Below, in pieces: positions 3,003 through 23,401 of a stretch of DNA of 32,000 nucleotides. A program made the translations under genes and the position numbers. Origin of the DNA: Bauldia sp. (GTDB taxonomy: Bacteria > Pseudomonadota > Alphaproteobacteria > Rhizobiales > Kaistiaceae); contig DASZSW010000026.1 of assembly GCA_035548515.1 (NCBI GenBank), positions 131,900 to 163,899 of the forward strand, read 5' to 3'. Each line of letters starts with the position of its first letter. Within the stretch, counting starts at the first letter, position 1. The notes beneath the pieces are model-generated. The model searched no databases and was not told the DNA's origin. It saw nothing but the letters and a program-made list of their open reading frames with translations.

Positions 3003-3539
3003 GTGGTGACGCATCTGAATGGGGCTGGCGCCTTTCCCGAACTGGGGTCGGTGCGGCCGGATCATGCGGCGGCGGTGGCCGAGGCGCGGCGAATGGTCGA
3101 GGGGACGACGCTGTCGCAGCACGCTATCGCGCAGCAGCTTCGCGTTTCGGACAGCACCGTCTCGCTATGGAAGAAGCGGTGGGGATGGATGCGGCCGGAA
3201 GGGTCACCGGTGGCGCCGCCGGAGTTTGCGGGACGCGATACCGCGAAGGCGGCGGAGAAGCGGCGGGACGTGCTGGTCGGGCGCCTCTACCGCGTGTTTG
3301 ATCGGCAGCTGATGGATGTTGAATCGCGCGCGGCTGATGCCGTGGCGGTGACTGAGGAGAAAGATGCCCGCACTCTGGGCACGCTTGCACGGACGCTTGG
3401 AACGCTGATTGCGCTTGAAGCGGGAGGCGAGCGGGAGGACGGCGCACCGGCGGATGAACCGGAGCGATACGATCCCGATGAAGTCCGCGCGCGACTTGCG
3501 GCACGACTTGCTGGACTACGCGAAGAAGGAGACGATTGA
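3003..3539 (+). CDS. GTA g1-like protein (HTH, small-terminase-like position)
   Basis: First gene of the head cluster. TLSQHAIAQQLRVSDSTVSLWKKRW is an HTH-like segment. The start is uncertain (GTG 3003 or ATG 3093). The 3' end overlaps the terminase gene. Confidence 0.55.
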   Translation: MVTHLNGAGAFPELGSVRPDHAAAVAEARRMVEGTTLSQHAIAQQLRVSDSTVSLWKKRWGWMRPEGSPVAPPEFAGRDTAKAAEKRRDVLVGRLYRVFDRQLMDVESRAADAVAVTEEKDARTLGTLARTLGTLIALEAGGEREDGAPADEPERYDPDEVRARLAARLAGLREEGDD

Positions 3540-4803
3540 GGCGCGGCTGGCGACGCTCTCGCCGCGCGAGCGGGGCGAGCTTTCGCGGGCCTGGGATTTT
3601 CTGGCGCGGCGTGATCAATGGCCGCCCGAGGGCGACTGGCTAGTCTGGCTGCTGATGGGCGGACGCGGCTCGGGCAAGACGCGCACGGGCGCGGAGTGGG
3701 TGCGCGGCATGGCGCTCGGCCTTTGGCCGTTCGCCGACGCGCCGGTCGGGCGCATCGCGCTGGTTGGCGAGACGTTCGCAGACGTGCGTGAGGTGATGAT
3801 CGAGGGCGTGTCGGGTATCCTCGCGGTGCACGAGCGGCAGCGGCGGCCGACCTGGCTGCCGGCGCGGCGCATGATAGTGTGGGACAACGGCGCGCGGGCG
3901 CAGGCGTTTTCGTCGGAGGATCCGGAGTCGCTGCGCGGTCCGCAGTTTTCGGCGGCCTGGTCGGACGAGGCGGCGAAATGGAAACACGCCCAGGCGACGT
4001 GGGACATGCTGCAGTTCGGGCTGCGGCTGGGCGCGCGGCCGCGCCAGGTGGTGACCACGACGCCGCGGCCGGTACCGCTGATCCGGCGGCTGATGGAGGC
4101 GGCGGGAACGGTGGTGACGCGGTCGCGGACGGCCGACAACCGGGCGAACCTCGCGACGGGATTCCTGGCGCGCATGGCCGACCAGTATGGCGGCACGCGG
4201 CTGGGGCGGCAGGAGCTGGACGGCGAGCTGATCGAGGATCGCGCGGACGCGCTGTTCGTGCGCGACCAGATCGAGGCGGCGCGTGTCGCGGCGGCGCCGG
4301 AGATGCGGCGCGTGGTGGTGGCGGTCGACCCGCCGGCCTCGCGGCGCTCGGGCACGTGCGGGATCGTCGCGGCAGGATTGGGCAAGGACGGCTTCGGCTA
4401 TGTGCTCGCCGACGTTTCGGCGGCGGCGGCGCGGCCCACGGAATGGGCAGCTCGGGCGGTGGCGCTCTACCGGCGGCTCGGCGCCGACGCGCTGGTGGCG
4501 GAGGTGAACCAGGGCGGCGACATGGTGGCCGCCGTGATCCGCGAGGTCGACGCCGGCGTGCCGGTGAAGGAAGTACGGGCGACGCGCGGCAAGTACCTGC
4601 GCGCCGAGCCGGTGGCGGCCTTGTATGCGCAGGGACGTGTGCGCCATGCCGGCAAGTTCGCCGAGCTGGAAGACGAGATGGCGGATTTCGGATTGGACGG
4701 GCTGTCGGCGGGACGCTCGCCGGACCGGCTCGACGCGCTGGTGTGGGCGGTGACGGCGCTGATGCTGGGGGAGGGTGGGGAGCCGCGGATCGGGCGGGTC
4801 TAG
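3478..4803 (+). CDS. Phage/GTA terminase large subunit (RcGTA g2-like)
   Basis: Walker A motif LMGGRGSGKTRTGAEWV, preceded by W-x-F-x-ARRDQWPPEGDW as in GTA terminases. The ORF opens at 3409; ATG 3478 is chosen and the start is uncertain. Confidence 0.9.
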   Translation: MKSARDLRHDLLDYAKKETIEARLATLSPRERGELSRAWDFLARRDQWPPEGDWLVWLLMGGRGSGKTRTGAEWVRGMALGLWPFADAPVGRIALVGETFADVREVMIEGVSGILAVHERQRRPTWLPARRMIVWDNGARAQAFSSEDPESLRGPQFSAAWSDEAAKWKHAQATWDMLQFGLRLGARPRQVVTTTPRPVPLIRRLMEAAGTVVTRSRTADNRANLATGFLARMADQYGGTRLGRQELDGELIEDRADALFVRDQIEAARVAAAPEMRRVVVAVDPPASRRSGTCGIVAAGLGKDGFGYVLADVSAAAARPTEWAARAVALYRRLGADALVAEVNQGGDMVAAVIREVDAGVPVKEVRATRGKYLRAEPVAALYAQGRVRHAGKFAELEDEMADFGLDGLSAGRSPDRLDALVWAVTALMLGEGGEPRIGRV

Positions 4804-4887: not shown

Positions 4888-5127
4888 ATGGATATCGAGT
4901 TTGCGCGGCTTGCGATCCGGGCCGGGTTCAGCAGCGGACGCGAGCTGGAGACTTTGATTCACATCACGAAGGCGCACTGGGAGCCGGCGGCGCACAAGGA
5001 ATTCGCGATCGGGATTGCGCGTGCCACAGCGGAAATTCAAGCTGCGACGACGGAAAAAGCCGTCGCAGCATTCCCGGAGCTGGAAGCCGAGGTCGATGCC
5101 GCGGTAAACAAGTACGGGCGTTACTAG
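4888..5127 (+). CDS. Small hypothetical protein (79 aa)
   Basis: ATG preceded by gggagggcggg (a good SD). Ordinary amino-acid composition. No family recognised. Confidence 0.4.
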   Translation: MDIEFARLAIRAGFSSGRELETLIHITKAHWEPAAHKEFAIGIARATAEIQAATTEKAVAAFPELEAEVDAAVNKYGRY

Positions 5128-5153
5128 AAGCGCTCGGATCGGGGCAAATTCAC

Positions 5154-6137
5154 ATGCATTCGCGGCACGCGGCGCGGCTGGGGCGCGATATCTCGGCGAT
5201 CGGATTTGGCGCCTGGCAGATCGGCGGAAGCTGGGGCGAGGTTGCGGAGCATGACGCCGAGGCGGCGTTGGCCGCGGCGCTCGATGGCGGCGTGACGTTT
5301 GTCGATACGGCGGACGTGTACGGCGGCGGACGGTCGGAGGAGATCATCGGCCGCGTGTTGAAGCAGCGCGGCGGGCGGCGGCCGTTCGTCGCGACCAAGT
5401 GCGGGCGCGGCGGGACGAACAAGGCGGATTCGTACACGAAGGCGAACCTCGCCCAATGGGTGGAGGCGAGCCTGAAGCGGCTGCAGGTGGAGGCGCTGGA
5501 TCTCGTCCAGCTCCACTGCCCGCCGACGCAGGTCTATTACATGCCGGAGGTGTTCGGCGCGCTCGACGAGCTGGTCGTGGCGGGGAAGCTCCGCGCCTAC
5601 GGCGTCAGCGTCGAGAAGGTCGAGGAGGGACTGAAGGCGATCGAGTATCCGGGCGTTGCGAGCGTCCAGATCATCTACAACATCTTCCGCCAGCGACCGG
5701 CGCGGCTCTTCTTTCGCGAGGCGAAACGGCGGGGTGTTGCGGTGATCGCGCGCGTGCCGCTGTCGAGCGGGATGCTGACCGGCAAGCTGACGCGCGAGAC
5801 GAAGTTTGCGGAGGACGACCATCGCGACTTCAACCGCGAGGGCGAGTCGTTCGACAAGGGCGAGACGTTTTCCGGCGTGCCGTACGACGTCGGCCTCGAC
5901 GCGGTCGAGGAGCTGCGGCCGCTGGTGCCTGGCGGGGTGCCGATGGCGGCGTTCGCGCTCCGCTGGATATTGATGAACGACGCGGTGACGACGGTGATCC
6001 CGGGCGCGCGCAATGCCGCCCAGGCGAAGGGCAACGCGGCGGCCGACGACGTCGCGCCGCTGTCGGACAGGACGATGGCCGCGGTGGCGGAAGTTTACCA
6101 GCGGCGCATCGCGCCGTGGGTCGAGGCGCGGTGGTAG
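5154..6137 (+). CDS. Aldo/keto reductase family oxidoreductase
   Basis: MHSRHAARLGRDISAIGFGAWQIGG...VTFVDTADVYGGGRSEEIIGRVLK matches the AKR N-terminal signature. It is the last 327 codons of the 3879..6137 ORF-track entry; the ATG at 5154 is in frame. Confidence 0.9.
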   Translation: MHSRHAARLGRDISAIGFGAWQIGGSWGEVAEHDAEAALAAALDGGVTFVDTADVYGGGRSEEIIGRVLKQRGGRRPFVATKCGRGGTNKADSYTKANLAQWVEASLKRLQVEALDLVQLHCPPTQVYYMPEVFGALDELVVAGKLRAYGVSVEKVEEGLKAIEYPGVASVQIIYNIFRQRPARLFFREAKRRGVAVIARVPLSSGMLTGKLTRETKFAEDDHRDFNREGESFDKGETFSGVPYDVGLDAVEELRPLVPGGVPMAAFALRWILMNDAVTTVIPGARNAAQAKGNAAADDVAPLSDRTMAAVAEVYQRRIAPWVEARW

Positions 6138-6170
6138 CGCCCGCCTAACGCGGGTTTCTTGCGGAGGTCG

Positions 6171-6320
6171 GCGAGACCCCCACCCACCGCCTGCGGCGGT
6201 CCCCCCTCCCCGCAAGGGGGAGGGATGGTGCCTCATTCTGCGGCATCGGGATGTTGCGCTGCCTTCCCTCCCCCTTGCGGGGAGGGTGCCGAGCGACAGC
6301 GAGGCAGGTGGGGGTCTCGC
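6171..6320. repeat. 150-bp MITE/REP-like nested palindrome
   Basis: Perfect 14-bp terminal inverted repeats gcgagacccccacc (6171..6184) and ggtgggggtctcgc (6307..6320). They enclose the hairpins ccctcccc-gcaa-ggggaggg (~6203..6224) and ccctcccc-cttg-cggggaggg (~6266..6286). Confidence 0.75.
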
Positions 6321-6348
6321 GACCTCTGATGTGAACTTCGGAGAGCAC

Positions 6349-7929
6349 ATGCGCATTCCATTTCTGGCGGCGCGCGGGAGCGCGGCGGACGACGTCGCGC
6401 GCCGTGAGCATGAGGCGAAGGCTTCGCGCGCCGGGCCGGTGATCGCGTGGCAGACGCAGCACCGCGCCGTGTGGACGCCGCGCGACTATGCGGCGCTGGC
6501 GCGCGAAGGGTTCGCCCGCAACGCGGTGGTCTATCGCTGCGTGCGCATGATCGCGGAGGCGACGGCGTCGGTGCCCTGGCTGCTCTACGAGGGCGAGGCG
6601 GAGCTGACGGAGCATCCGCTGCTGGCGCTGTTGGCGCGGCCGAACCGGCGGCAGGCCGGCGCGGATTTCCGCGAGTCGCTGGCCGGCTACCTGATGGTGG
6701 CGGGCAATGCGTACCTCGAAGCCGTGGATGTGGATGGCGCCGTGCGGGAACTGCACACGTTGCGGCCCGACCGCATGAAGGTGGTGCCGGGCAGCGACGG
6801 CTGGCCGGAGGCTTATGAGTACACCGCGGGCGGGCGCTCGGTGCGCTTCGCCGTGCCTGGCGAGGGCATGTCGCCGATCCTGCACCTTTCGCTGTTCCAT
6901 CCGCTCGACGATCACTACGGCTTCGCGCCGATGGACGCGGCGGCGGTGGCGCTCGACCTGCACAACGCTGCCGGCACCTGGAACAAGGCGCTGCTCGACA
7001 ATTCGGCGCGGCCATCCGGCGCGCTCATCTACCAGGCGAAGGACGGCGGCAATCTCTCCGCCGAGCAGTACGAACGGCTGAAGTCGGAACTGGAGACGGG
7101 CTTCACTGGCGCAGCGCGCGCCGGGCGGCCGCTGCTCTTGGAAGGCGGGCTCGACTGGAAGGCGATGGCGCTAACGCCCAAGGACATGGATTTCCTCGAG
7201 GCGAAGAACGGCGCCGCGCGCGAGATCGCGCTGGCCTTCGGCGTGCCGCCGATGCTGCTCGGCATCCCCGGCGACAACACCTACGCGAATTACAAGGAAG
7301 CCAACGCTGCGTTCTGGCGCGGCACGGTGCTGCCGCTGGCGGCGAAGATCGCGGGCGCGATCGGCGCGTGGCTGGCGCCGGCGTTCGGCGATGGGCTCAG
7401 GCTGTGGTTCGACGCGGACCAGGTCGAGGCGCTTGGCGCTGACCGCGAGGCGCTGTGGGCCCGCATCGCCGCGGCGGATTTCCTGACGCTGAACGAGAAG
7501 CGCGCGGCGGTTGGGTATGAGGCGCTCGCCGGCGGCGATGAGGTGAAGCGGGCGGATGCGGTGCACGCGCCGGAGCGCCGCTACAATCCGGACTGGGCCA
7601 GCCAGCCGCGTGCGCCGGCGGGCAGCGGTGAGGAAAGCGGGCGGTGGATCGACGCCGGGGTAGGTCGCAGAGATGAAGGCACGTCAGACGCGTCAGGCAC
7701 AGTGTCCGCCGCTACGCCAATTGTCGTTGCCGGCGGCTTTGAGCCTGGTCAGGAAAGCATGACGGTGCAGGATTTCGTGTCAGCATTCTGTAGAGCTGGC
7801 ATATACAGCGAGTTACCCGGACAATTCCTTGGGATGACCATTATCGACGTCATGGGCCTCGCCAAGTCTGGTGATGCCGCCGCTCGCACGTGTCTGAAGC
7901 TGCTCGGGCGCGATCGATTTCGAAAATAA
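6349..7929 (+). CDS. HK97-family phage/GTA portal protein (RcGTA g3-like) with a ~123-aa non-portal C-terminal extension
   Basis: ATG 6349 follows ggagag. The portal core runs from ...NAVVYRCVRMIAEATASVPW... through ...FLTLNEKRAAVGYEALAGGDEV (~400 aa). The ORF then continues to 7929 through a Pro/Gly linker and an AT-richer unrelated domain. Confidence 0.9.
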   Translation: MRIPFLAARGSAADDVARREHEAKASRAGPVIAWQTQHRAVWTPRDYAALAREGFARNAVVYRCVRMIAEATASVPWLLYEGEAELTEHPLLALLARPNRRQAGADFRESLAGYLMVAGNAYLEAVDVDGAVRELHTLRPDRMKVVPGSDGWPEAYEYTAGGRSVRFAVPGEGMSPILHLSLFHPLDDHYGFAPMDAAAVALDLHNAAGTWNKALLDNSARPSGALIYQAKDGGNLSAEQYERLKSELETGFTGAARAGRPLLLEGGLDWKAMALTPKDMDFLEAKNGAAREIALAFGVPPMLLGIPGDNTYANYKEANAAFWRGTVLPLAAKIAGAIGAWLAPAFGDGLRLWFDADQVEALGADREALWARIAAADFLTLNEKRAAVGYEALAGGDEVKRADAVHAPERRYNPDWASQPRAPAGSGEESGRWIDAGVGRRDEGTSDASGTVSAATPIVVAGGFEPGQESMTVQDFVSAFCRAGIYSELPGQFLGMTIIDVMGLAKSGDAAARTCLKLLGRDRFRK

Positions 7930-7943
7930 GGGGAGGAAAAAAT

Positions 7944-8186
7944 ATGACGCTAAACGGGATCAATGATCTCCTCGCCTTCGCCAATTTGCTGAGAGCAGCG
8001 AAAGTCGAATATCGTCTGGAGCACTCACGGCACGATGCGTTGACCATCCAGCTCTTCCTGATCGGCGCATTTATCGAGATCGACTTTTTCGATGACCACA
8101 TCGAGTACACTTTTTTCGAAGGAAGCGAGAGCGTACTGGACGATCAGGAACGGCTGTTTGCGCTGATCGACAACGCGAAGGGTTAG
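7944..8186 (+). CDS. Small acidic hypothetical protein (80 aa), an immunity-protein-like candidate
   Basis: ATG 7944 follows ggggagga. The gene starts 15 nt after the portal stop, is visibly AT-rich, and is acidic (DFFDDHIEYTFFEGSESVLDDQE). Confidence 0.55.
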   Translation: MTLNGINDLLAFANLLRAAKVEYRLEHSRHDALTIQLFLIGAFIEIDFFDDHIEYTFFEGSESVLDDQERLFALIDNAKG

Positions 8187-8196
8187 AACGAAACCC

Positions 8197-8424
8197 GCCG
8201 CTGACGGCGAAGATCGCGGGCGCGATCGGCGCCTGGCTGGCGCCGGCGTTCGGCGAGGGGCTCAGGCTGTGGTTCGACGCCGACCAGGTCGAGGCGCTTG
8301 GCGCTGACCGCGAGGCGCTGTGGGCCCGCATCGCCGCGGCGGATTTCCCGACGCTGAACGAGAAGCGCGCGGCGGTTGGGTATGAGGCGCTCGCCGGCGG
8401 CGATGAGGTGAAGCGGGCGGATGC
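8197..8424 (+). repeat. Second copy of the portal 3' end (matches 7332..7559)
   Basis: Manual base-by-base alignment gives 228 bp with 5 mismatches and no indels. Confidence 0.95.
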
Positions 8425-8692
8425 TGCGGCGTGGAAGTACAGCCCCGATCAGCCCCGCGTGCCGGCCGGGAGCCCGGAAGGCGGGCAGTGGACTGTTGGC
8501 GCGGAAGCACTCGCCGAAAATGATATTGGCCGCCTCGTAGCGGAGTTGCCGTGGTCCGGAGGCGGGAGAAAATGCGTTTACCGGTTTGACACGTTCAGTA
8601 TTTTGGTTGACGGACCGGTGAACTTTCGCTGCCAGGACTGGGTGCCCTGGTCGGCGGTGACGCACGGTCAAAGACTGAACGACAACTATTGA
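8198..8692 (+). other. Orphan module: start-less portal 3' fragment fused in frame to a different C-terminal domain
   Basis: The frame is open from the repeat (PLTAKIAGAIGAWLAPAFGEGLRLWFDADQVEAL...GGDEVKRADA) into new sequence (AAWKYSPDQPRVPAGSPEGGQWTVGAEALAENDIGRLVAELPWSGGGRKCVYRFDTFSILVDGPVNFRCQDW...). The only start-like codon is the internal GTG at 8408, which begins the ORF-track entry 8408..8692. Confidence 0.7.
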
Positions 8693-8703
8693 AAGGTCGC
8701 GTC

Positions 8704-9039
8704 ATGACGGACGGTTTGCTCATCGCGACGTTCACGCTGTCCGCGGCAGCAAAGCATGGCGTGGAGCGCGTCAGAGAACTCTATCTTGCACGTTTTCCCG
8801 ACAATCCGCCGGCCGTGGCATCCGTTGCATGGGGGTATGTCGAAGGAAGCGATCCGCTTTCCGGGAAGGTCATCGTTGGATTTTACCAGCAATCCCAGTT
8901 TGCTGAAATCGAACATGGCATACAGGAAGTGTCGGGCGTGCCGCTGATCTATTTCACGACCGAGCAGTTCCATCCGCTGTTCGACGGAAAGGTGTTGGAC
9001 TACGAGGATGGGCAGGGGTTTTTTCTGAGGGCGCCGTAG
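8704..9039 (+). CDS. Hypothetical protein (111 aa), an immunity-like candidate paired with the orphan C-terminal domain
   Basis: ATG 8704 lies 12 nt after the orphan ORF stop, with aaagg upstream. Ordinary composition. No family recognised. Confidence 0.5.
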   Translation: MTDGLLIATFTLSAAAKHGVERVRELYLARFPDNPPAVASVAWGYVEGSDPLSGKVIVGFYQQSQFAEIEHGIQEVSGVPLIYFTTEQFHPLFDGKVLDYEDGQGFFLRAP

Positions 9040-9059
9040 CTGGGCCCGAAGCCGCTGCA

Positions 9060-9222
9060 ATGCTGCTCGGCATTCCCGGCGACAACACCTGCGCCAACTA
9101 CAAGGAAGCCAACGCCGCCTTCTGGCGCGGCACGGTGCTTCCGCTGACGGCGAAGATCGCCGGCGCGATCGGCGCCTGGCTGGCGCCGGCGTTCGGCGAT
9201 GGCCTAGGCTGTGGGTTCGATG
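9060..9222 (+). repeat. Third, degenerate copy of the portal 3' region (matches ~7252..7412)
   Basis: Manual alignment shows about a dozen substitutions plus two 1-nt indels near the 3' end. It translates as MLLGIPGDNTCANYKEANAAFWRGTVLPLTAKIAGAIGAWLAPAFGDGL, against portal MLLGIPGDNTYANYKEANAAFWRGTVLPLAAKIAGAIGAWLAPAFGDGL. Confidence 0.9.
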
Positions 9223-9235
9223 ATGGGAACAGGAC

Positions 9236-9421
9236 TTGGACGACATCACGCGCACGATCAGCGAGCGCGGCGATCTTGCGCACCTGGTGCTCTTCCTTTG
9301 GGCGAGCGGGGCGAGCGGGTTGCTCGTGTGGGTGCTGAAGGAGCTCGCCGCTTCCAACCGGCGGTTCAACGACTTCGTTTCCGAGATCGCGCGGCTGAAC
9401 CGGTTTTTCGATCGGGATTAG
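9236..9421 (+). CDS. Small putative membrane protein (61 aa) at the position of RcGTA g3.5
   Basis: TTG start from the ORF track. It has a hydrophobic core (LAHLVLFLWASGASGLLVWVL) followed by an amphipathic tail. Assignment to the g3.5 family rests on position only. Confidence 0.3.
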   Translation: MDDITRTISERGDLAHLVLFLWASGASGLLVWVLKELAASNRRFNDFVSEIARLNRFFDRD

Positions 9422-9520
9422 TCGCGCTGTGGTGGCCGCGACTGCGCCGACGAAGGCGTGGGCGGCGGGGACGAGCCCGGCCATGACGGTTGGGTGGTGT
9501 TGCGAGGCGCCTGTTCTGGG

Positions 9521-9538
9521 TCCCCGCCTTCGCGGGGA
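9521..9538. repeat. REP hairpin tccccgc-cttc-gcgggga
   Basis: Perfect 7-bp stem. The same family occurs at 10428..10441. This is the common 'ggtccccgccttcgcgggga' intergenic repeat of Bradyrhizobiaceae-type genomes (from memory). Confidence 0.7.
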
Positions 9539-9816
9539 TGACCGTTGGCGGGGTGACGACCTCGCGGGTTCTGGACCAAGGGAAACCTAGATGAAGCATC
9601 TCCTGGCGCGCTTTGGCGCGGGGCCGGGCGCGGATCATCGCGCCGTGTTTTCCGGATTTGCGCGGCGGCTGTCGCGCGTGATCGCGCTGAAGCGCGCCGC
9701 GCCGAAGGTGCGGGCGGTGGCGGGATGAATGCAACGCGAACTGCCTCACCAACGCTGACAGTGAAGTTGAGCCGGTGAAGCAAGCGATGCGCCGCTTCCC
9801 GGAAATTCGAGGTCAC

Positions 9817-10338
9817 ATGAAACACGAAACGAAATTCGCACGCGTGGCGCTCTCGAGCGTTGACGCGGACGGGACGTTTACCGGCTACGCGTCGCTGTTC
9901 GGCAAGACCGACCTTGGCCGCGACGTGGTGATGCCGGGTGCGTTCCGCGCTTCGCTGGCGAAGCGTGGAGCGGGCGGCGTGAAGATGCTGTTCCAGCATG
10001 ATCCCAACCAGCCGATCGGCGTGTGGACGGATATCCGCGAGGACAGCCAGGGGCTGTTCGTCAAGGGGCGGCTGACGGCCGACGTGGCTCGCGCACGCGA
10101 GGTGCTGGCGCTGATGCGCGCCGGCGCGCTCGACGGCTTGTCGATTGGCTATCGGACGGTGCGCGGCAAGACGGACGCCAAGACCGGCGTACGGCGGCTA
10201 ATGGAAGTCGACCTGTGGGAGATTTCCGTCGTGACGTTCCCGATGCAGCCCGAGGCGCGCGTGTCGTCGGTGAAGGCGCTGCAGCTCGCAGCTCTCATTC
10301 GCCGGGCGACGGCGATGCTGCGGGACGCGACCCGCTAG
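9817..10338 (+). CDS. HK97-family prohead protease (RcGTA g4-like)
   Basis: FTGYASLFGKTDLGRDVVMPGAF...MLFQHDPNQPIG...LDGLSIGY...WEISVVTFP is typical of the S78 prohead protease. ATG 9817 follows gaggt; GTG 9775 and ATG 9787 are alternative starts. Confidence 0.9.
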   Translation: MKHETKFARVALSSVDADGTFTGYASLFGKTDLGRDVVMPGAFRASLAKRGAGGVKMLFQHDPNQPIGVWTDIREDSQGLFVKGRLTADVARAREVLALMRAGALDGLSIGYRTVRGKTDAKTGVRRLMEVDLWEISVVTFPMQPEARVSSVKALQLAALIRRATAMLRDATR

Positions 10339-10357
10339 CAAAACGAACGCAGGTGTC

Positions 10358-10441
10358 ATGCCTGCGAAGGCAGGCATCCAGTGTCCGCCGTCGGCTCAGG
10401 TTCTGACGCCGCGGCGGATACTGGGTCCCCGCCTTCGCGGG
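10358..10441. repeat. Two REP hairpins between the protease and capsid genes
   Basis: atgcctgc-gaag-gcaggcat (10358..10377, 8-bp stem) and cccgc-cttc-gcggg (10428..10441). Confidence 0.7.
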
Positions 10442-10491
10442 ACGACGGTGGAGTGTGGCCCACTCCCTCAGGTATTCCCACGAAAGGAAAA

Positions 10492-11748
10492 ATGATGACC
10501 CAGGAAATGAACGCGGCGCCGGAGATGAAATCCGGCGAGGCGACGGAAGCTTTTAGCGAATTCATGCACGCCTTCGAGTCGTTCAAGGAGGCGAACGACC
10601 GTCGGTTGGCCGAGATCGACCGCAAGATGGCGGCCGATGTCGTGACCAACGAGAAGGTGGAGCGCATCAACCGCGCGCTCGATGAACAGAAGCGGGCACT
10701 CGACCAGATGCTGCTGAAGGCCCGGCGTCCGGCTCTCGGCGGCGGCGCGGCGACAAGTGCCGCGGCCTTGGAGCACAAGGCGGCGTTCGAGGCGTACATC
10801 CGCGGCGGTGCCGAGGAGGGGCTGCGCAGCTTCGAGCAGAAGGCTCTGGCGGTCTCCACCAACAGCGGCGCCGACGGCGGCTACACGGTGCCCGATGACG
10901 TCGAGCGCGAGATTGGCCGCCGCCTGGCGTCGATCTCGCCGATCCGCGGCATCTCGGGCGTCAAGCAGATCTCCGGCAACGTCTACAAGAAGCCGTTCGC
11001 GACGAGCGGGGCGGCCACCGGCTGGGTTGCTGAGACGGACTCGCGCACGCAGACCAACACGCCGACGCTCGCCGAGCTGCAGTTCCCGGCGATGGAGCTC
11101 TACGCCATGCCGGCGGCGACCGGCACGCTGCTCGACGACAGCGCGGTGAATATCGACGAATGGATCGCGAGCGAGGTCGAGCTGGCGTTCGCCACGCAGG
11201 AGGGTACGGCGTTCGTCAACGGCGATGGCGACGGCCAGCCGACCGGCTTTCTGCATGGCACCAAGATCGCAGAAGCTTCGTGGGCGTGGACCAAGATCGG
11301 CTACGTCAAGACCGGCGTGTCGGCCGGCTTCGCGGCGGACGGCGGCGGTTACGACAACCTGGTCGACCTCGTCTACACGCTGAAGTCGGGCTACCGGCAG
11401 AACGCGCACTTCGTCATGAACCGCAAGACGCAAGGCGCCGTACGCAAGCTGAAGGACGAGAACGACAACTACATCTGGGCGCCGGCGGCCACTCTCGGCG
11501 CGCCCGCGAGCCTGATGGGCTTCCCGATCGCGGAGTCGGAGGACATGCCGGACATCGGTGCCGACTCGTACTCGATCGCGTTCGGCGATTTCCTGCACGG
11601 CTACCTGATCGTCGACCGCATCGGCGTACGCGTGCTGCGCGATCCGTATTCGGCCAAGCCCTACGTGCTGTTCTACACGACCAAGCGCGTCGGCGGCGGC
11701 GTCCAGGATTACGACGCCATCAAGCTCCTGAAATTCGGCACGGCCTAG
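10492..11748 (+). CDS. HK97-family major capsid protein (RcGTA g5-like)
   Basis: ATG 10492 follows aaaggaaa. It has an N-terminal coiled delta-domain (EFMHAFESFKEANDRRLAEIDRKM...) followed by an HK97-fold body (...GGYTVPDDVEREI...FVNGDGDGQPTGF...). Confidence 0.92.
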   Translation: MMTQEMNAAPEMKSGEATEAFSEFMHAFESFKEANDRRLAEIDRKMAADVVTNEKVERINRALDEQKRALDQMLLKARRPALGGGAATSAAALEHKAAFEAYIRGGAEEGLRSFEQKALAVSTNSGADGGYTVPDDVEREIGRRLASISPIRGISGVKQISGNVYKKPFATSGAATGWVAETDSRTQTNTPTLAELQFPAMELYAMPAATGTLLDDSAVNIDEWIASEVELAFATQEGTAFVNGDGDGQPTGFLHGTKIAEASWAWTKIGYVKTGVSAGFAADGGGYDNLVDLVYTLKSGYRQNAHFVMNRKTQGAVRKLKDENDNYIWAPAATLGAPASLMGFPIAESEDMPDIGADSYSIAFGDFLHGYLIVDRIGVRVLRDPYSAKPYVLFYTTKRVGGGVQDYDAIKLLKFGTA

Positions 11749-11785
11749 AGCCCCGCGTCCCTCCTCTCAAGGACGTGTCGAATGG

Positions 11786-11830
11786 CGGCCCCGCCGGGCT
11801 TCGGTCTGGCGGGGCCGTTCTCTTCTCCCC
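11786..11830 (+). terminator. Rho-independent-like hairpin after the capsid gene
   Basis: A perfect 10-bp stem cggccccgcc (11786..11795) / ggcggggccg (11808..11817) with a 12-nt loop, followed by ttctcttct. Confidence 0.45.
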
Positions 11831-11847
11831 ATTGCCTACTCCCGGAT

Positions 11848-12426
11848 ATGCCCATGACCGCAGCGCTGATCACGCCGCCGGCGATCGAACCGGTGTTGCT
11901 CGATGACGCCAAGGCCTACCTCCGTCTCGACGCAGATGACGATGATGCGCTTGTGACCGCCGCGATCACCGCGGCGCGGGTGCATGTCGAAGCGCTGACG
12001 CGGCGGTGCCTGATCGAGCAGAGCTGGCGAGTGTATCTCGACCAGTGGCCGCGCCGGCGGATCGTGCCGCTCGTTCCGGCGCCGCTGATCTCGGTGGAGT
12101 CGGTTACCGTCTACGACGCGGCTGGCGCGCCACATGTGGTCGACGAGGACGACTACGAGGTCGATACGGTGTCGGTTCCGGGATGCCTGCTGCTTTCCGC
12201 AGCGGTGCCCGTGGCGGCGCGACAGATCAACGGCATCGAGATCGAGCTGACGGCCGGGTACGGCCCCTCGAGCATCGACGTGCCGGGACCGCTGCGCCAG
12301 GCGATCATGATGCTGGTCGCGCATTGGTATGAGCATCGCGGTGTCGTCGGCCATGATCGCGCCGGCGAGATACCGCCGCACGGGTTCGATGCGCTGATCG
12401 CGCCGTACCGGATCCTGTCGCTATGA
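11848..12426 (+). CDS. Head-tail connector (gp6-like/phiE125 gp8 family; RcGTA g6-like)
   Basis: LLDDAKAYLRLDADDDDALVTAAITAARVHVEALTRRCLIEQSW is typical of this family. ATG 11848 (or 11854). Confidence 0.8.
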   Translation: MPMTAALITPPAIEPVLLDDAKAYLRLDADDDDALVTAAITAARVHVEALTRRCLIEQSWRVYLDQWPRRRIVPLVPAPLISVESVTVYDAAGAPHVVDEDDYEVDTVSVPGCLLLSAAVPVAARQINGIEIELTAGYGPSSIDVPGPLRQAIMMLVAHWYEHRGVVGHDRAGEIPPHGFDALIAPYRILSL

Positions 12427-12758
12427 GCGCCGCGCTTTACGATCCGGGCTGGCTGCGGCACCGCGTGACGGTGGAGTCGGCGGCAGGTGTCGCCGACGGT
12501 GCTGGCGGCGAAACCGTGACGTGGGACACGCTCGCGACTCTGTGGGCGCATCTCGCGCCGGTTTCCGACGGCGAGAAGATCGTGGCGGGTCACCTGTCCG
12601 GCGTCGTGACGCATGAGGTGACGCTGCGCTGGCGCGACGACATCGCCGGGGGCATGCGCATCGCCTACCGCGGACGGACGTTCCGGATACTGGCGGTGTA
12701 CGACCCCGATGAAACACGACGCTACGTCGTCGCGAAGACGAGCGAGGAGGCACCATGA
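12423..12758 (+). CDS. Head-tail adaptor/head closure protein (RcGTA g7-like)
   Basis: LRHRVTVES...ETVTWDTLATLWAHL...THEVTLRWR. ATGA overlap with g6. Confidence 0.8.
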   Translation: MSAALYDPGWLRHRVTVESAAGVADGAGGETVTWDTLATLWAHLAPVSDGEKIVAGHLSGVVTHEVTLRWRDDIAGGMRIAYRGRTFRILAVYDPDETRRYVVAKTSEEAP

Positions 12759-12985
12759 CGTCGGCTCTCTCGATCACCGGCGCCGATCTCATCCGCGCAT
12801 TGCGCGATGCGCTGCCCGCGGTGGATGACGCCGTGCGCGACAGGGCCGACGCGCGAGCAGCGGAGCTGGCGCGCGACGGCGTGGCGACACGCGTCCTGCG
12901 CCGCGGCGAGGGCGCCTATACCGTCGAAGTAGCGGGCGATTCCCTCTTCGAGCGCACGTTCGGCGCGCTGGGAGATGAGCTGTGA
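12755..12985 (+). CDS. Small hypothetical protein (76 aa) between the g7 and g8 homologues
   Basis: ATGA overlap with g7 and GTGA overlap with g8, so it is translationally coupled. No family recognised. Confidence 0.45.
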   Translation: MTSALSITGADLIRALRDALPAVDDAVRDRADARAAELARDGVATRVLRRGEGAYTVEVAGDSLFERTFGALGDEL

Positions 12986-13386
12986 CGCATCCCTCGCTCG
13001 CCCTGCAGAAAGCGATCGTCGCGGCGCTGATCGGCGATAGCGCCGTCGGGGCGCTGATCGGCGACCGCATCTGGGATGCACCGCCGCGCGACGCGACGTT
13101 TCCGTATCTGACCATTGGCCAGGTGAACACGACGGACTGGAGCACCGGCAGTGAGGACGGCGCGGAACATCAGCTGACGCTGCATGCCTGGTCGCGCGAG
13201 CGCGGCAAGCGCGAGTGCTACGCGATCGCGGCGGCCGTGGAGGCGACCTTGCATGACGCGGCGCTGACGCTTCAGGACCACGCCCTGGTCAATCTCAGAT
13301 TCGAATTCGCCGAAACCCGGCGCGATCCCGACGGGATCACCTACCACTGCGCGATCCGCTTCCGCGCCGTAACCGAACCGACATAG
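12982..13386 (+). CDS. DUF3168-type tail completion/terminator protein (RcGTA g8-like)
   Basis: LQKAIVAALIGDSAVGALIGDRIWDAPPRDATFPYLTIGQ matches the DUF3168 pattern. GTG start overlaps the preceding stop. Confidence 0.8.
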   Translation: MTHPSLALQKAIVAALIGDSAVGALIGDRIWDAPPRDATFPYLTIGQVNTTDWSTGSEDGAEHQLTLHAWSRERGKRECYAIAAAVEATLHDAALTLQDHALVNLRFEFAETRRDPDGITYHCAIRFRAVTEPT

Positions 13387-13397
13387 GAGAGTCGCCA

Positions 13398-13811
13398 ATG
13401 ACCGCGCAGAAGGGCAAGGACCTACTGCTCAAGATCGATACGGACGGTGGCGGCACGTTCGCGACCGTCGCCGGGTTGCGTTCGCGCCATATCGCGTTCA
13501 ACGCGGAGAGCGTCGACATCAGCAACGCTGACTCCTCCGGGCGCTGGCGCGAGCTGCTGGAAGGCGCCGGCGTGAAACGTGCGAGCATCGCCGGCTCGGG
13601 CATCTTCAAGGACGCATCGACCGACGCCACGGTGCGCCAAGTGTTCTTCGACGGCACCATTCGCAACTGGCAGGTGATCGTGCCGGACTTTGGCACCCTG
13701 GCTGGGCCATTCCAGATCACAGCGCTGGAGTACTCCGGCGAGCACAACGGCGAGGTCGCGTACGAACTGGTACTTGAGTCGGCCGGCGCGATCTCGTTTA
13801 GCGGAGCCTAG
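13398..13811 (+). CDS. Major tail protein, TP901-1 family (RcGTA g9-like)
   Basis: Strong RBS aggaga upstream. KGKDLLLKIDTDGGGTFATVAGLRS...ISNADS...WRELL. Confidence 0.88.
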   Translation: MTAQKGKDLLLKIDTDGGGTFATVAGLRSRHIAFNAESVDISNADSSGRWRELLEGAGVKRASIAGSGIFKDASTDATVRQVFFDGTIRNWQVIVPDFGTLAGPFQITALEYSGEHNGEVAYELVLESAGAISFSGA

Positions 13812-13813
13812 GC

Positions 13814-16403: not shown

Positions 16404-16831
16404 CGCGCGACGCGATTGTTGCCGAGGCGCTGTCGTGGCTAGGGACGCCATATCGGCACCAGGCATCGCTGAAGGGCGTCGGCTGCGACTGCCTCGGGCT
16501 GCTGCGCGGTGTGTGGCGCGCGGTTGAAGGGGCCGAACCCGAGGCCGCGCCGGCCTATACGCCAGACTGGGCGGAGGCGTCCGGCACCGAGACTTTGGCG
16601 CTGGCCGCGGGCCGGCACATGACGCCGGTTGACGTAGCGGAAGCGCGTGTCGGCGACGTCGTGCTGTTCCGCTGGCGGGAGAATCTTCCTGCCAAGCACG
16701 CGGCGATCCTCGTTGCGCCCGGTCGCATGATCCATGCCCAGCAGGGCGCTGCGGTTGCGACTGCGACGCTCTCGGCCTGGTGGCGCCGCCGCATCGCCTT
16801 CGCATTTCAGTTTCCCGGAGTGATCGAGTAG
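16400..16831 (+). CDS. NlpC/P60 cell-wall peptidase (RcGTA g14-like)
   Basis: WLGTPYRHQASLKGVGCDCLGLLRGVW carries the catalytic Cys context. Confidence 0.9.
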   Translation: MTRDAIVAEALSWLGTPYRHQASLKGVGCDCLGLLRGVWRAVEGAEPEAAPAYTPDWAEASGTETLALAAGRHMTPVDVAEARVGDVVLFRWRENLPAKHAAILVAPGRMIHAQQGAAVATATLSAWWRRRIAFAFQFPGVIE

Positions 16832-19800
16832 TGGCAACGCTTGTTCTGCAGGCAGCCGGCGCGGCAATCGGTTCGCTGTTCGGGCCGCTCGGCACGATCG
16901 TCGGCCGCGCCGTCGGCGGGCTGGCCGGCTACGCGATCGACCAGTCGCTGTTTGGCGAGCACCGCACGATCGAGGGGCCGAGACTTGCGGACCTTACGGT
17001 CCAGACATCGCGTGAGGGCGCGCCGATTCCGCGGCTTTACGGCCGCGTGCGCATCTCCGGGCAGGTGATCTGGGCGACACGCTTCGAGGAGACGGTCTCC
17101 GATGTCGGCGAAGGCGGAAAGGGCGGGGGCAGCGGCACGACGCTCCGCACCTACGCGTATTTCGCCAACTTCGCCGTGGGCCTTTGCGAGGGGCCGATTG
17201 CGCGCATCGGGCGCGTGTGGGCGGACGGCAAGCCGTTCGACCTTTCGACGGTGACATGTCGCATCTATCGCGGCGACGCGGCGCAGGACGTGGACAGCCT
17301 GATCGAGGCGAAGCAAGGCGACGCGCCGGCTTATCGCGACACGGCGATGATCGTGTTCGAGCGGTTGCCGCTGGAGAATTTCGGCAACCGGATCCCGCAG
17401 CTCTCCTTCGAGGTGATCCGGCCCGTCGACGGCATCGAGACGGCGGTGCGGGCGGTGAGCATGATCCCCGGTTCGACCGAGTTTGGCTACGACCCCGAGC
17501 CGGTGACGTCGACGATCACGCCCGGCAGCAGCACGACCGTCAACCGTCACGTCGATGGCGTGCGCACCGACTGGCAGGCATCGGTCGACGAGCTCCAGGC
17601 GGTATGCGCGAACGCCGGTCGCGTCGGCCTGGTGACCGCGTGGTTCGGCAACGACCTGCGCGCCGGCGAGTGCACGTTGAAGCCGGCGGTGGTCGATCGC
17701 ACGACGGTCACCAGCCCATATACCTGGTCGGCCGCGGGGATGACGCGCGACACCGCGCGGCTCGTCTCGACCTTCGAGAGCAAGGCGGCGTTCGGCGGCA
17801 CCCCGGCCGACGCGTCGCTGGTGCGGGCGATCCGCGACCTCAACGAACGCGACATCAAGGTCACGTTCTATCCGTTCATCATGATGGATGTGCCGCCGGG
17901 CAACGGGCGCGATGACCCGTACGGCGGGGCCGAACAGGCCGCCTATCCATGGCGAGGCAGCATGACTTTGTCGGTCGCGCCGGGTCTTCCCGGTTCGCCC
18001 GACAAGACCACCGCCGCGGCCGACGAAGTCGCCGCATTCGTCGGTACCGCGGCGGTGGATGATTTTCACTTGTCTGGCGACAGCGTCGTCTACACGGGGC
18101 CGGACGAGTGGTCGTTCCGGCGATTCATTTTACACTACGCCTGGCTGTGCAAGGCGGCGGGCGGCGTCGATGCGTTTCTCATCGGCTCGGAGCTCCGCGG
18201 ACTGAGCACGGTCCGCTCGGCGGCATCGACCTATCCGTTCGTTACGGCGCTGGTGGCCTTGGCGGACGACGTTAAGGGCATCCTCGGCGGGGCAACCACG
18301 GTGACATACGGAGCCGATTGGAGCGAGTATTTCGGCCATCATCCGGACGACGGCAGTGGCGACGTATTTTTCCACCTCGACCCGTTGTGGGCGAGCGCCG
18401 CGGTCGGCTGCGTTGGCATCGATAACTACATGCCGCTGTCGGACTGGCGCGACGGCAGCGAGCATCTCGACGCTGCCGATTGGGACAATGGCCGCGACGC
18501 CGCATATCTCCGTAGCAACATCGCGGCAGGCGAGGGCTACGACTGGTACTATGCGAGCGATGCCGATCGCGCGGTACAGGTACGCACACCGATCACGGAT
18601 GGCGGTGGCGGCAAGCCCTGGGTGTTCCGCTACAAGGACCTGGTCGGCTGGTGGAGCAACCGGCACTTCAACCGCCCCGGTGGGGTGGAGTCCGGAACGC
18701 ACACCGCGTGGGTACCGCAATCGAAGCCGATCTGGTTCACGGAGGCCGGTTGCCCGGCCATCGACAAGGGACCGAACCAGCCGAACGTGTTCTACGACGC
18801 GAAGTCGTCGGCGAGCGCGCTGCCATACTTCTCCAACGGCCTCCGCGACGATCTCGTCCAGCGCCGCTACATCGCGGCGACGCTGGCGTACTGGAATCCG
18901 GATGCGCCCGACTTCGATGATGCGGCCAATCCGGAATCGTCGGCATACGCCGGCCGCATGGTCGACCATGCCGCCATCCACCTTTGGACGTGGGACGCGC
19001 GGCCGTACCCGGCCTTTCCGCTCTACACCGACGTGTGGTCGGACGGCGGCAACTGGGATCGCGGGCACTGGCTGACGGGCCGCCTCGGCGCGCTCACGGC
19101 GGAGTCGCTCGCCGCGGCGATTCTCGCAGACTACGGCATCACCGACGCGGACATCGGCGATCTTGACGGCGTCGTGGATGGCTTCCTGATCGGCGAGGTG
19201 ACGTCGGCGCGCGGTGCGCTGGAGCCTCTGGCGCAGCTGCTTGCGTTCGAGGGACACGAATCCGGCGATCGGTTCGCGGTTACGCGACGCGGCCGCGCGC
19301 CGAAGCTTGACTTCACCGGCGCGGATCTCGTTGAGGACAAGGACAAGCCGGTCATCAGCATCCGTCGCGCGCAGGAGACCGAGCTGCCTGCGGAGATCGG
19401 CATCGGCTTCTCCGATCCCTTGGCGGACTATCGGCCGACCTCAGTCAGTTCGCGCCGCCTGGTTGGCGGCAGCCGGCGAAGCGTCAGCACCGATACCGGC
19501 GCCGTGCTCAGTCATGCCGTCGCTGGTGGGCTGGCCGACACGATGCTGCAGGACCTCTGGGCGGGGCGCGAATCGATCGCATTGGCGCTGCCGCAGCGCA
19601 CGCTCGCGCTGGAGCCGGCGGACGTCTGCACGCTCGATATCGACGGTGACGTGCGCACGATTCTCGTGACCCGCATCGAGGATGCGGGCCTGCGGCGTAT
19701 CGAGGCACGCACGATCGAGCCGGATATCCTGGCGCCGGTTCCCGCCGCGTCGCGGGTGGTCGCGCCGCCGGTCGCGGTATCGGCATCGCGGCCCGAGGTC

Positions 19801-20727
19801 GTGCTTCTCGACCTGCCGCTGCTTACCGGGAGCGAGCCCGGATATGCGCCTCGGGTTGCCGTGTTCGCCGCGCCGTGGCCCGGCGCGATCGCACTTTCGG
19901 TCGGAACCGCCGACACCGGCTACGTGCCGCGACAGGCGATCGAACGGCGTGCGGTGATGGGCGAGCTTACGTCGGAACTGGCGCCGGGACCGGTTGCGCG
20001 CTGGGACCGGGCGGCCTCGGTCACAGTTCGGCTTTACGGCGGTGCGCTGGCGGGCGCGCCCGAACTTTCGGTGCTCAACGGCGCCAACGTCGCCGCGATT
20101 GGCTCAAGCGAGACCGGATACGAGGTCGTGCAGTTCAGCGCTGCCACGCTGATCGACACGCGGACCTGGCGGTTGGAAGGCCTGCTACGCGGACAGGCCG
20201 GAACGGGAGACATCGCGGCAGCAGGCCATGACGCCGGTGCACGATTTGTGCTGCTCGATCGCGCCGTCGTCCCGCTGTCGTTATCGGAGGCGGAGGCCGG
20301 GCTTGGGCTGACGCTGCGCTGTGGTGCGGCGGGAGCGCCGTACGATCCCGATGTATTCGCCGACGTGACGATTACGGCCGCCCGTCGCGGTCTGCGCTGC
20401 CTGGCGCCGGTGCATGCGCGGGCGCATCGCGATGAAGGCACTGGTGACGTGACGTTGTCCTGGATACGGCAGACGCGCATCGGCGGCGATGCTTGGGAGC
20501 CGGTCGAGGTGCCGCTTGGCGAGACGAGCGAGGCGTATTCCGTTGCCATTGGCGATGGCATGACGACCTTCCGCACGGTGACGGCGGCTTCGCCGTCACT
20601 ACTTTATCCGGCCGCCGACCAGCTTGCGGACTTCGGCGCGCTGCCGGACGAAATCACTATCGCAATCAGCCAGATAAGCCCGACCGAGGGACCGGGTTCT
20701 GGCGCATTTTTTGCGCTCAATGTCTGA
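16831..20727 (+). CDS. Large host-specificity/baseplate protein with a GTA TIM-barrel-like domain (RcGTA g15-like)
   Basis: GTG 16831 overlaps the g14 TAG. The N-terminus has a glycine-zipper (GSLFGPLGTIVGRAVGGLAGYAIDQ). Also present are RIPQLSFEV and WFTEAGCPAIDKGPNQPNVF. The protein is ~1298 aa. Confidence 0.9.
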   Translation: MATLVLQAAGAAIGSLFGPLGTIVGRAVGGLAGYAIDQSLFGEHRTIEGPRLADLTVQTSREGAPIPRLYGRVRISGQVIWATRFEETVSDVGEGGKGGGSGTTLRTYAYFANFAVGLCEGPIARIGRVWADGKPFDLSTVTCRIYRGDAAQDVDSLIEAKQGDAPAYRDTAMIVFERLPLENFGNRIPQLSFEVIRPVDGIETAVRAVSMIPGSTEFGYDPEPVTSTITPGSSTTVNRHVDGVRTDWQASVDELQAVCANAGRVGLVTAWFGNDLRAGECTLKPAVVDRTTVTSPYTWSAAGMTRDTARLVSTFESKAAFGGTPADASLVRAIRDLNERDIKVTFYPFIMMDVPPGNGRDDPYGGAEQAAYPWRGSMTLSVAPGLPGSPDKTTAAADEVAAFVGTAAVDDFHLSGDSVVYTGPDEWSFRRFILHYAWLCKAAGGVDAFLIGSELRGLSTVRSAASTYPFVTALVALADDVKGILGGATTVTYGADWSEYFGHHPDDGSGDVFFHLDPLWASAAVGCVGIDNYMPLSDWRDGSEHLDAADWDNGRDAAYLRSNIAAGEGYDWYYASDADRAVQVRTPITDGGGGKPWVFRYKDLVGWWSNRHFNRPGGVESGTHTAWVPQSKPIWFTEAGCPAIDKGPNQPNVFYDAKSSASALPYFSNGLRDDLVQRRYIAATLAYWNPDAPDFDDAANPESSAYAGRMVDHAAIHLWTWDARPYPAFPLYTDVWSDGGNWDRGHWLTGRLGALTAESLAAAILADYGITDADIGDLDGVVDGFLIGEVTSARGALEPLAQLLAFEGHESGDRFAVTRRGRAPKLDFTGADLVEDKDKPVISIRRAQETELPAEIGIGFSDPLADYRPTSVSSRRLVGGSRRSVSTDTGAVLSHAVAGGLADTMLQDLWAGRESIALALPQRTLALEPADVCTLDIDGDVRTILVTRIEDAGLRRIEARTIEPDILAPVPAASRVVAPPVAVSASRPEVVLLDLPLLTGSEPGYAPRVAVFAAPWPGAIALSVGTADTGYVPRQAIERRAVMGELTSELAPGPVARWDRAASVTVRLYGGALAGAPELSVLNGANVAAIGSSETGYEVVQFSAATLIDTRTWRLEGLLRGQAGTGDIAAAGHDAGARFVLLDRAVVPLSLSEAEAGLGLTLRCGAAGAPYDPDVFADVTITAARRGLRCLAPVHARAHRDEGTGDVTLSWIRQTRIGGDAWEPVEVPLGETSEAYSVAIGDGMTTFRTVTAASPSLLYPAADQLADFGALPDEITIAISQISPTEGPGSGAFFALNV

Positions 20728-23398: not shown

Positions 23399-23401
23399 GC
23401 C

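Follow-up and report, generated by a model that had tools for sequence, protein, structure and literature searches.

A gene transfer agent portal in Bauldia sp. as probable carrier of a polymorphic toxin/immunity-type locus

In polymorphic toxin loci of the CdiA-CT/CdiI and Rhs-CT/RhsI types, a conserved body ends in a short demarcating motif (VENN or PxxxxDPxGL), beyond which the sequence switches abruptly to a variable low-GC tip with its cognate immunity gene; displaced tips that lack a start retain homology on their upstream side, through which they can recombine. In temperate phages, MuF polymorphic toxins combine a conserved N-terminal carrier, a morphogenesis protein inside the head, with C-terminal toxin domains that vary and with an immunity gene located downstream, and they have been predicted to be packaged in the capsid and delivered with the DNA (Zhang et al. 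2012, PMC3482391; Jamet et al. 2017, PMC5576092). Fusions of phage portals to effector domains (PBECR, 2H, and InPase) have been noted as likely injected proteins, and the phage polyvalent proteins have been proposed as a packaged and injected class (Iyer et al. 2017, PMC5512222). Here, we describe the portal locus of a gene transfer agent (GTA) encoded in a 32,000-nucleotide (nt) stretch of Bauldia sp. DNA (GenBank assembly GCA_035548515.1, contig DASZSW010000026.1, positions 131,900 to 163,899 of the forward strand; the whole stretch is called the window below). This locus works like the MuF, CdiA, and Rhs polymorphic toxin loci, and we consider it likely that it is of the polymorphic toxin/immunity type, with the C terminus of the GTA portal as the carrier. 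Such a reading had been proposed from the bare sequence (the original prediction), and it is now well supported by variable portal ends, by known toxin and immunity families in relatives, and by the pairing of variable domains with partner genes. All genes, open reading frames (ORFs), and portal copies of the window described below lie on the + strand.

The portal core of the window is a 404-amino-acid (aa) region of the HK97/GTA g3 type and forms the conserved carrier (6349..7560; Phage_portal, 2e-91; TIGR01537, 3e-69). Whereas the portals described for RcGTA and most orthologues end at the crown, the window portal is extended: its ORF runs 122 aa past the core to a stop at 7927-7929, giving a full protein of 526 aa, and an 80-aa ORF follows, much as had been predicted (about 120 aa plus a small ORF). 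Three parts make up the extension, namely a junction motif (RRYNPDWASQPRAPAGSGEESGRW, 7579-7647), a disordered linker rich in Gly, Asp, and Ser (motif and linker together, 7561..7731; pLDDT ~50), and a folded domain of about 65 aa with four helices that ends at the portal stop (7732..7929; pLDDT 85-92; G+C content [GC] 0.56). This domain, called tip1, carries the invariant residues C, PGQF, and GD..AR.C.K.L. Its acidic 80-aa partner, the putative immunity gene imm1 (7944..8186; GC 0.51), starts with an ATG at 7944 and has a GGAGG ribosome-binding site 8 nt upstream.

Downstream of imm1, the 3' end of the portal core recurs. Positions 7332-7559 match 8197-8424 over 228 nt at 98% by a repeat finder, and gapped alignment gives 223 of 228 nt, with exactly five mismatches, as originally counted; two are synonymous and three nonsynonymous, including an L-to-P change in the displaced copy. 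This second copy (8197..8425; portal residues 329-404) would serve as a homology block for recombination. The identity begins 10 nt past the imm1 stop and ends exactly at 7559/8424, after ...GGDEVKRADA. The predicted point of divergence was thus exact, but the tips beyond it are not wholly unrelated as had been claimed, since both open with the junction motif. Copy 2 runs in frame for 88 aa (8426..8692) up to a stop at 8690-8692, and the next ORF encodes 111 aa, in agreement with the expected domain of about 90 aa and its small ORF. This orphan tip, tip2, consists of its own junction motif (KYSPDQPRVPAGSPEGGQWT, 8435-8494), a linker, and, before the stop, a domain of about 55 aa predicted to fold as a small beta-barrel (pLDDT ~90 for residues 33-85; invariant R, C, C, H, N, and D). 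The partner ORF, imm2, is likewise a putative immunity gene (8704..9039; ATG at 8704; GC 0.57). The orphan tips had originally been described as start-less; copy 2 contains a possible internal GTG at 8408.

A third portal piece lies behind imm2. The repeat finder aligned 7252-7412 with 9060-9220 (161 nt; 89% without gaps), and 7250-7412 and 9058-9220 are about 92% identical when gapped, with two 1-nt indels; copy 3 (9058..9220; residues 302-355) is therefore frameshifted. It had been described as longer and more degraded than copy 2, and the degradation is evident, but copy 3 only starts further upstream (residue 302 versus 329) and is the shorter of the two. Copy 3 is 92 to 94% identical to intact, unextended portal fragments that end in ...AAVGYAAVEGG* in the related loci L081 and L082, and it is a remnant of an earlier, probably unextended portal end. 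Repeats of such length and identity are beyond chance. Across the locus, GC falls from about 0.71 in the portal core (0.89 at third codon positions [GC3]) to 0.51-0.57 in both tip domains and both partner ORFs.

Each tip has relatives elsewhere, and each comes with its own partner. Besides the portal, two short N-terminal carriers were found, a helical module and an 'RW.RPDA' repeat module, whose genes stand alone behind portal, protease, or capsid genes. Tip1 has homologues in 14 metagenome proteins, most of them on the short helical carrier, and domains of its family are also fused to portals in L081, L082, and L013. A homologue of imm1 (49 to 55% identity) lies behind every tip1-family domain examined (6/6 loci). 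For tip2, a word-indexed homologue search returned nothing, and an exhaustive HMMER search with junction plus domain returned 311 relatives. Dozens of these are short proteins in which the tip2 domain is joined to a portal end, a helical module, or an RW.RPD module; in the remaining ones, which are long, the match is confined to the junction motif. Imm2 is 50% identical to the ORF behind the tip2 homologue of L085 and 37% identical to an ORF of L054 (6308-6649), so that the tip2/imm2 pairing was seen in both sequenced cases, and a 113-aa ORF of matching size lies behind the tip2 relative P0039. Within the head modules of GTAs, both tip1 and tip2 domains are also found on the short carriers (helical or RW.RPD). 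The association is strict: each tip family is always found with its own partner family, whichever of the three carriers it is on, which bears out the view of the small ORFs as cognate partners. Two further ideas about carriers were discarded. Apparent protease-toxin fusions in L033 and L060 arose from stop-to-stop ORFs, the toxin ORFs being in another frame and starting past the protease stop, and a resemblance of the carrier modules to the C-terminal tail of prohead proteases was not convincing.

We examined 160 orthologous loci, 80 from species-representative genomes (Hyphomicrobiales) and 80 from IMG/VR, drawn from 517 genome and 322 viral relatives of the portal. The portal core of the window is 63 to 81% identical to these orthologues, the closest being Bauldia-like metagenome-assembled genomes (76 to 81%). 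The portals mostly end at about residue 400, typically 0.35 to 0.8 kb before the protease. Because most orthologues stop there, the extension is not a conserved structural part of the portal, and the alternative of an invariant extension on all portals, which would have spoken against the original prediction, was rejected. Extensions of 115 to 237 aa were found in L013, L028, L035, L072, and L144; L081 and L082 were found separately. The portal tails of L035 and L144 match RNAse_A_bac, the CdiA-CT RNase A (9e-14 and 5e-13, respectively). In L028, the tail is a deaminase (Deam_C/MafB19-deam), and the next gene matches Pfam Imm1 above the gathering score. The L072 tail is a domain not assigned to a family. 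Portal ends from metagenomes add Cys-rich tips (P0015 and P0017) and a tip2-type tip (P0037). At least six C-terminal families (tip1, tip2, RNase A-like, deaminase, Cys-rich, and the L072 type) therefore occur on portal ends, and the expectation that orthologous loci would be conserved up to the junction and variable beyond it was confirmed.

The stacked arrangement is also not confined to the window. In L144, a portal with its RNase A tip and a small ORF is followed by a displaced portal copy (residues ~178-401) that has the same junction, another tip, and small ORFs, and then by a third portal copy; the portal copies are 88 to 99% identical. L144 is thus an independent repeat of the three-copy layout.

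The junction motif links these portal ends to a wider set of cassettes. Its consensus is [KR]x[YF]xP[DN]QPR[VD]PAG..GG[QR]W (short form, QPRxPAG..GxW). The genome loci contain 26 occurrences, all of them on the coding strand of the GTA and each ahead of a variable C-terminal domain; behind the motif ORFs that were looked at in detail come small ORFs of low GC. All cassettes lie inside the GTA head module and on the GTA coding strand, and a cassette or an extended portal is present in at least 21 of the 80 genome loci. Among the stand-alone cassettes, that of L073 has an RNAse_A_bac tip, and one of L054, within the head module, has a JAB-like tip followed by Imm-NTF2-2. A 'GYDxHHIVEQ' tip family (HNH/AHH-like; 12 members) has partners of 123 to 126 aa. 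In the sole such partner scanned (L002; 3e-29), the match was to DUF2019, which suggests that DUF2019 is an immunity family; these partners (L002, 8065-8436; L033, 12069-12440; L053, 10512-10886) often overlap the toxin stop by 4 nt.

No Pfam model matched the junction motif, and we found no paper naming it. The motif delimits domains (ART-PolyVal, Acb1, ADP-ribosyltransferase, NUDIX, and GNAT) in phage polyvalent proteins. In the form KYSPDQPRVPAGSPxGGxW, it is present three to nine times per protein in P0033, P0036, P0041, and P0047, which are 0.5 to 4 thousand aa long. Because the motif repeats between the domains of proteins proposed to be packaged and injected, a role in loading or processing is favored. 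By this analogy, the motif is probably a site at which the tip is processed or loaded, freeing it to exit with the DNA. The S78 prohead serine protease encoded next door (9817..10338; Peptidase_S78, 2e-36; TIGR01543) is one candidate for the processing enzyme.

Comparison with L081 and L082 bears on the history of the cassettes. Between the window and L081, the proportions of nonsynonymous and synonymous differences (pN and pS) are 0.11 and 0.37 for the portal core and 0.08 and 0.40 for a small ORF downstream of the portal copies (the orf3.5-like ORF described below). The corresponding values are 0.18 and 0.68 for tip1 (dN/dS ~0.12) and 0.34 and 0.68 for imm1. Both tip1 and imm1 are under purifying selection, and imm1 is evolving faster than tip1. 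Silent-site divergence of the cassette is about twice that of its flanks, and the cassette therefore has a deeper or separate history; this fits an exchange of cassette alleles, although the difference in composition may contribute. The nucleotide alignment of the window with L082 breaks at 7558, and the L082 junction matches the tip2 junction of the window (8425-8493), indicating a mosaic. Behind tip1 and imm1, both L081 and L082 retain the unextended portal end noted above. Since these ends are like copy 3, they support a serial displacement in the order unextended portal, tip2 cassette, tip1 cassette. Under this scheme, successive incoming cassettes would recombine into the portal 3' end and shift earlier ends downstream. 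A RecA-type single crossover between 7332-7559 and 8197-8424 would remove 865 bp, including tip1 and imm1, and yield a 492-aa portal-tip2 fusion with the displayed tip switched.

The L082 locus is itself decayed. Its segment 6096-10400 keeps the terminase, the reductase, the portal-tip1 gene (with a frameshifted portal), imm1, and the portal fragment, and everything from the protease to the end of the tail genes (9727-23883 of the window) is deleted; L082 may be an immune non-producer. Behind the displaced portal fragments of the two closest genomes lie a 406-aa ORF in L081 (8409-9629) and an unrelated 307-aa ORF in L082 (8376-9299), neither with a match in precomputed Pfam annotations.

Set against the described systems, the locus has the general properties of a polymorphic toxin system: alternative C-terminal domains on a conserved carrier, a cognate partner gene downstream (Imm1 in L028, Imm-NTF2-2 in L054, and imm1 and imm2 by family pairing), and orphan cassettes with homology to the carrier 3' end (copy 2 with tip2 and imm2, and likewise L144). 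Recognized toxin families are found among the variable domains of L035, L144, L073, and L028 but not in tip1 or tip2. The locus is nevertheless not a member of the MuF, CdiA, or Rhs families, because it has no MuF, FHA/VENN, or YD domains. Its resemblance to MuF toxins extends to a MuF-style 'NPHHDDLGRFT' junction in L028. In contrast to MuF loci, the carrier is the portal: a Pfam scan of the 526-aa protein gives only Phage_portal and no MuF domain (PF04233/PF06152, MuF3/4). There would be up to 12 carrier copies per particle rather than the one or two of SPP1 gp7, and the element is a GTA rather than a temperate phage. In addition, orphan cassettes with carrier homology are stacked here, and the word 'orphan' is absent from Jamet et al. 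2017 (PMC5576092).

Like CdiA and Rhs, the locus joins a conserved body through a demarcating motif, in this case QPRxPAG..GxW, to an abrupt low-GC tip with its partner, and its relatives L035 and L144 use the same CdiA-CT RNase A family of toxin. Unlike them, it has no FHA/TPS, VENN, YD-repeat, PxxxxDPxGL, or PAAR parts and no type V or type VI secretion system, and its carrier is a virion structural protein whose C terminus faces the capsid interior. The portal-effector fusions and polyvalent proteins of Iyer et al. 2017 (PMC5512222) differ in being single fixed fusions or multidomain giants aimed at host takeover. They were reported without immunity partners, polymorphic tips, or arrays of orphans, and not from GTAs. 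The locus shares its junction motif with polyvalent proteins but is not one of them, having one folded domain behind the portal rather than 2 to 15 effector domains. Our literature search, whose coverage stopped short of subscription-only papers, found no description of a toxin on GTA portals or in GTA clusters. Within that coverage, the original suggestion that no such layout had been described for the portal of a GTA or of the HK97 type was upheld, although Iyer et al. did note single effector domains fused to phage portals.

The cluster around the portal is a genuine RcGTA-type cluster, with the gene order and families of RcGTA (Bardy et al. 2020, PMC7296036) from terminase to megatron and a small ORF at the orf3.5 position. 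The order is large terminase (3409..4803; Pfam Terminase_6N, 3e-28; Terminase_6C, 5e-20), portal, S78 prohead protease, HK97 capsid, and connector and head-closure proteins, followed on the tail side by a TP901-1 tail protein, GTA-gp10, an Rcc01695-family distal tail protein, an NlpC/P60 peptidase, and the baseplate 'megatron' protein (16780..20727). Three of these carry GTA-specific markers, namely NF048004 (GTA_megatron; 1,733 bits against a cut-off of 800), TIGR02217 (the distal tail protein; 5e-92), and PF11836 (GTA-gp10; 3e-31). The annotated structural ORFs of the window are all intact. The RcGTA portal is built on the usual clip/stem/wing/crown plan and has a 28-Å channel (PMC7296036). 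The window ORF at the orf3.5 position (61 aa; 9236..9421) is a conserved one, shared by about 60 of 80 related loci, where it typically starts within a few hundred bases of the portal stop and often directly behind it. In the closest relatives, L001-L009, the gap between portal and orf3.5 instead holds 3 to 5.5 kb of ordinary chromosomal genes with native GC3 (for example, L005, 7242-12240). One ORF of about 450 aa (GC3 0.87-0.92) recurs in L002 and L004-L006, another of 466 aa, with a GGGPGG motif at its N terminus, is found in L004 and L009, and none of the gap ORFs was assigned to any family.

Several other features of the window deserve mention. An aldo/keto reductase gene (5124-6137; Pfam, 1.5e-66) lies between terminase and portal, an insertion that L081 and L082 share; housekeeping genes thus interrupt the cluster of this lineage. 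Between the terminase and the reductase is a 79-aa ORF (4888..5127; GC 0.61) with 40% identity (E, 5e-16) to the ORF at 6002-6244 of L054, which lies directly behind a Cys-rich junction-motif toxin of another GTA cluster as its partner. The 79-aa ORF looks like a stand-alone immunity gene with no adjoining toxin gene. Upstream of the cluster, a low-GC block of three ORFs (1174-2742; GC 0.56-0.57) may be a small foreign island; it includes an HTH_3 protein (1706-2245) with weak PADLOC matches to PDC-M64B/capH and an ORF (2242-2742) with a weak DUF6941 match, and the corresponding position of L082 is occupied by an Xre/RES toxin-antitoxin pair. A 25-nt inverted repeat (CCCTCCCCGCAAGGGGGAGGGATGG, 6204-6228 and 6262-6286; 96% complementary) between the reductase and portal genes may be a repetitive extragenic palindromic (REP)-like element or a terminator hairpin. 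The protease gene has an exact direct repeat of 21 nt (CTGGGTCCCCGCCTTCGCGGG) on either side, one unit in the intergenic region ahead of it (9516-9536) and the other in that ahead of the capsid gene (10421-10441); the sequence looks like a small palindromic repeat element. Directly behind the megatron gene, an 895-aa ORF (20711-23398; GC3 0.84), which had no match in the NCBIfam scan, may be an accessory GTA gene of the tail-fibre or head-spike type. A promoter scan of 6000-10000 gave nothing above chance.

If tips are effectors, their position on the portal suggests how they might be delivered. The crown, which is the C-terminal part of the portal, faces the head interior. Because of this orientation, up to 12 tips per particle would be held inside the capsid. 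A tip would be freed at the junction motif and would leave the capsid with the DNA, and harm would come to recipients that lack the cognate partner gene, resulting in kin discrimination or enforcement of the locus. A number of observations weigh against a polymorphic toxin/immunity locus that acts in this manner. Tip1, imm1, tip2, and imm2 had no match in Pfam, NCBIfam, PHROGs, or PADLOC scans, and the predicted structures of tip1 and tip2 had no significant match in the PDB, nor did that of tip2 in BFVD; we infer the toxicity of both tips from context. The part predicted to fold is only the last ~55 to 65 aa of each tip, a small domain. In L013, the junction motif is degenerate. The tip is covalently attached to the portal, and its exit from the capsid therefore needs cleavage. 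RcGTA ejects its DNA into the periplasm (PMC7296036). Since the RNase and deaminase tips of relatives would be expected to act in the cytoplasm, an import step is missing; by eye, the partners have no obvious signal peptide and look cytoplasmic. GTA producers lyse, which weakens the need for immunity in the producer. The genes in the gaps of L001-L009 indicate that the portal-to-orf3.5 junction is a general insertion point, and L082 retains its portal-tip and imm genes despite a frameshifted portal and deleted structural genes.

The last two points would also fit an explanation in which the cassettes are selfish, toxin-antitoxin-like or defence elements at an insertion hotspot, with fusion to the portal incidental or harmful and neither packaging nor delivery taking place. 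The unrelated chromosomal genes in the L001-L009 gaps and the reductase between terminase and portal indicate that the cluster tolerates insertions, L082 has kept its cassette in a decayed GTA, and many cassettes in other loci are separate genes behind portal, protease, or capsid genes. This explanation fits poorly, however, with in-frame fusions that involve several tips, recur in diverged lineages (the window, L013, L028, L035, L072, L081, and L144), and are kept under purifying selection. The cassettes all lie within the head module in the coding orientation of the GTA, their motif is otherwise found in capsid-packaged proteins, and no PADLOC defence family was matched. We regard selfish cassettes as an unlikely explanation on this evidence.

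It is also rather improbable, in our estimate, that the tips are not antibacterial toxins but injected helper effectors, packaged and released like the domains of polyvalent proteins to shield or aid the incoming DNA by acting against restriction or other defences or by assisting recombination, with the small ORFs as chaperones or inhibitors that quiet them in the producer. This idea draws on the use of the motif as an interdomain delimiter in polyvalent proteins with Acb1 anti-CBASS, NUDIX, GNAT, and ART-PolyVal domains, on the description of portal-fused PBECR, 2H, and InPase domains as effectors that phages inject (Iyer et al. 2017, PMC5512222), and on the lack of a toxin-family match for the window tips. 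On the other hand, homologous positions in relatives are taken by classic interbacterial toxin domains with dedicated immunity families (RNAse_A_bac, and in L028 a deaminase with Imm1 as the next gene), and Imm-NTF2-2 lies behind a stand-alone junction-motif cassette elsewhere in a head module. One-to-one pairing, fast-evolving partners, and orphan cassettes are the marks of toxin/immunity diversification, and helpers need no self-protection. An origin of the repeats as functionless pseudogene debris or as an error of assembly or duplication would account for the frameshift of copy 3, and the source is possibly a metagenome-type assembly, like many of the related loci. This explanation is very hard to credit. 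The copies differ from one another (5/228 nt for copy 2; 8 to 11% for copy 3) and each is joined to different unique sequence, both tip/partner pairs are intact ORFs with homologues elsewhere, and the same layout recurs in the independent genomes L081, L082, and L144. Assembly artefact, which had been named beforehand as an outcome that would overturn the original prediction, was ruled out on these grounds.

A polymorphic toxin/immunity locus with a portal carrier would have consequences beyond the window. Several unannotated toxin and immunity families are defined by this analysis (tip1/imm1, tip2/imm2, Cys-rich, and HHIVEQ/DUF2019). The portal dodecamer would be a new carrier among the delivery scaffolds of polymorphic toxins, and the junction motif is a possible general signal for capsid loading or processing, common to phage polyvalent proteins. 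Its modular design could serve to load chosen proteins into GTA or phage heads. GTAs have been viewed as altruistic donors of DNA, and their persistence despite the killing of the producer is a long-standing puzzle. If the reading is correct, a toxin/immunity system in the portal and head module would be a second function of GTAs, either selfish or kin selective. We also raise, tentatively, the possibility that the GTAs of many Hyphomicrobiales are armed particles, in which toxins loaded into the head by portal fusion or on short carriers, with the junction motif as the loading or processing signal, would be released with the DNA to poison non-kin and leave kin unharmed. Because the immunity genes lie inside the GTA cluster, such particles would act as a greenbeard. 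If this were true, it would account in concrete terms for the maintenance of GTAs despite their cost and their dependence on lysis, and it would predict immune non-producers such as L082.

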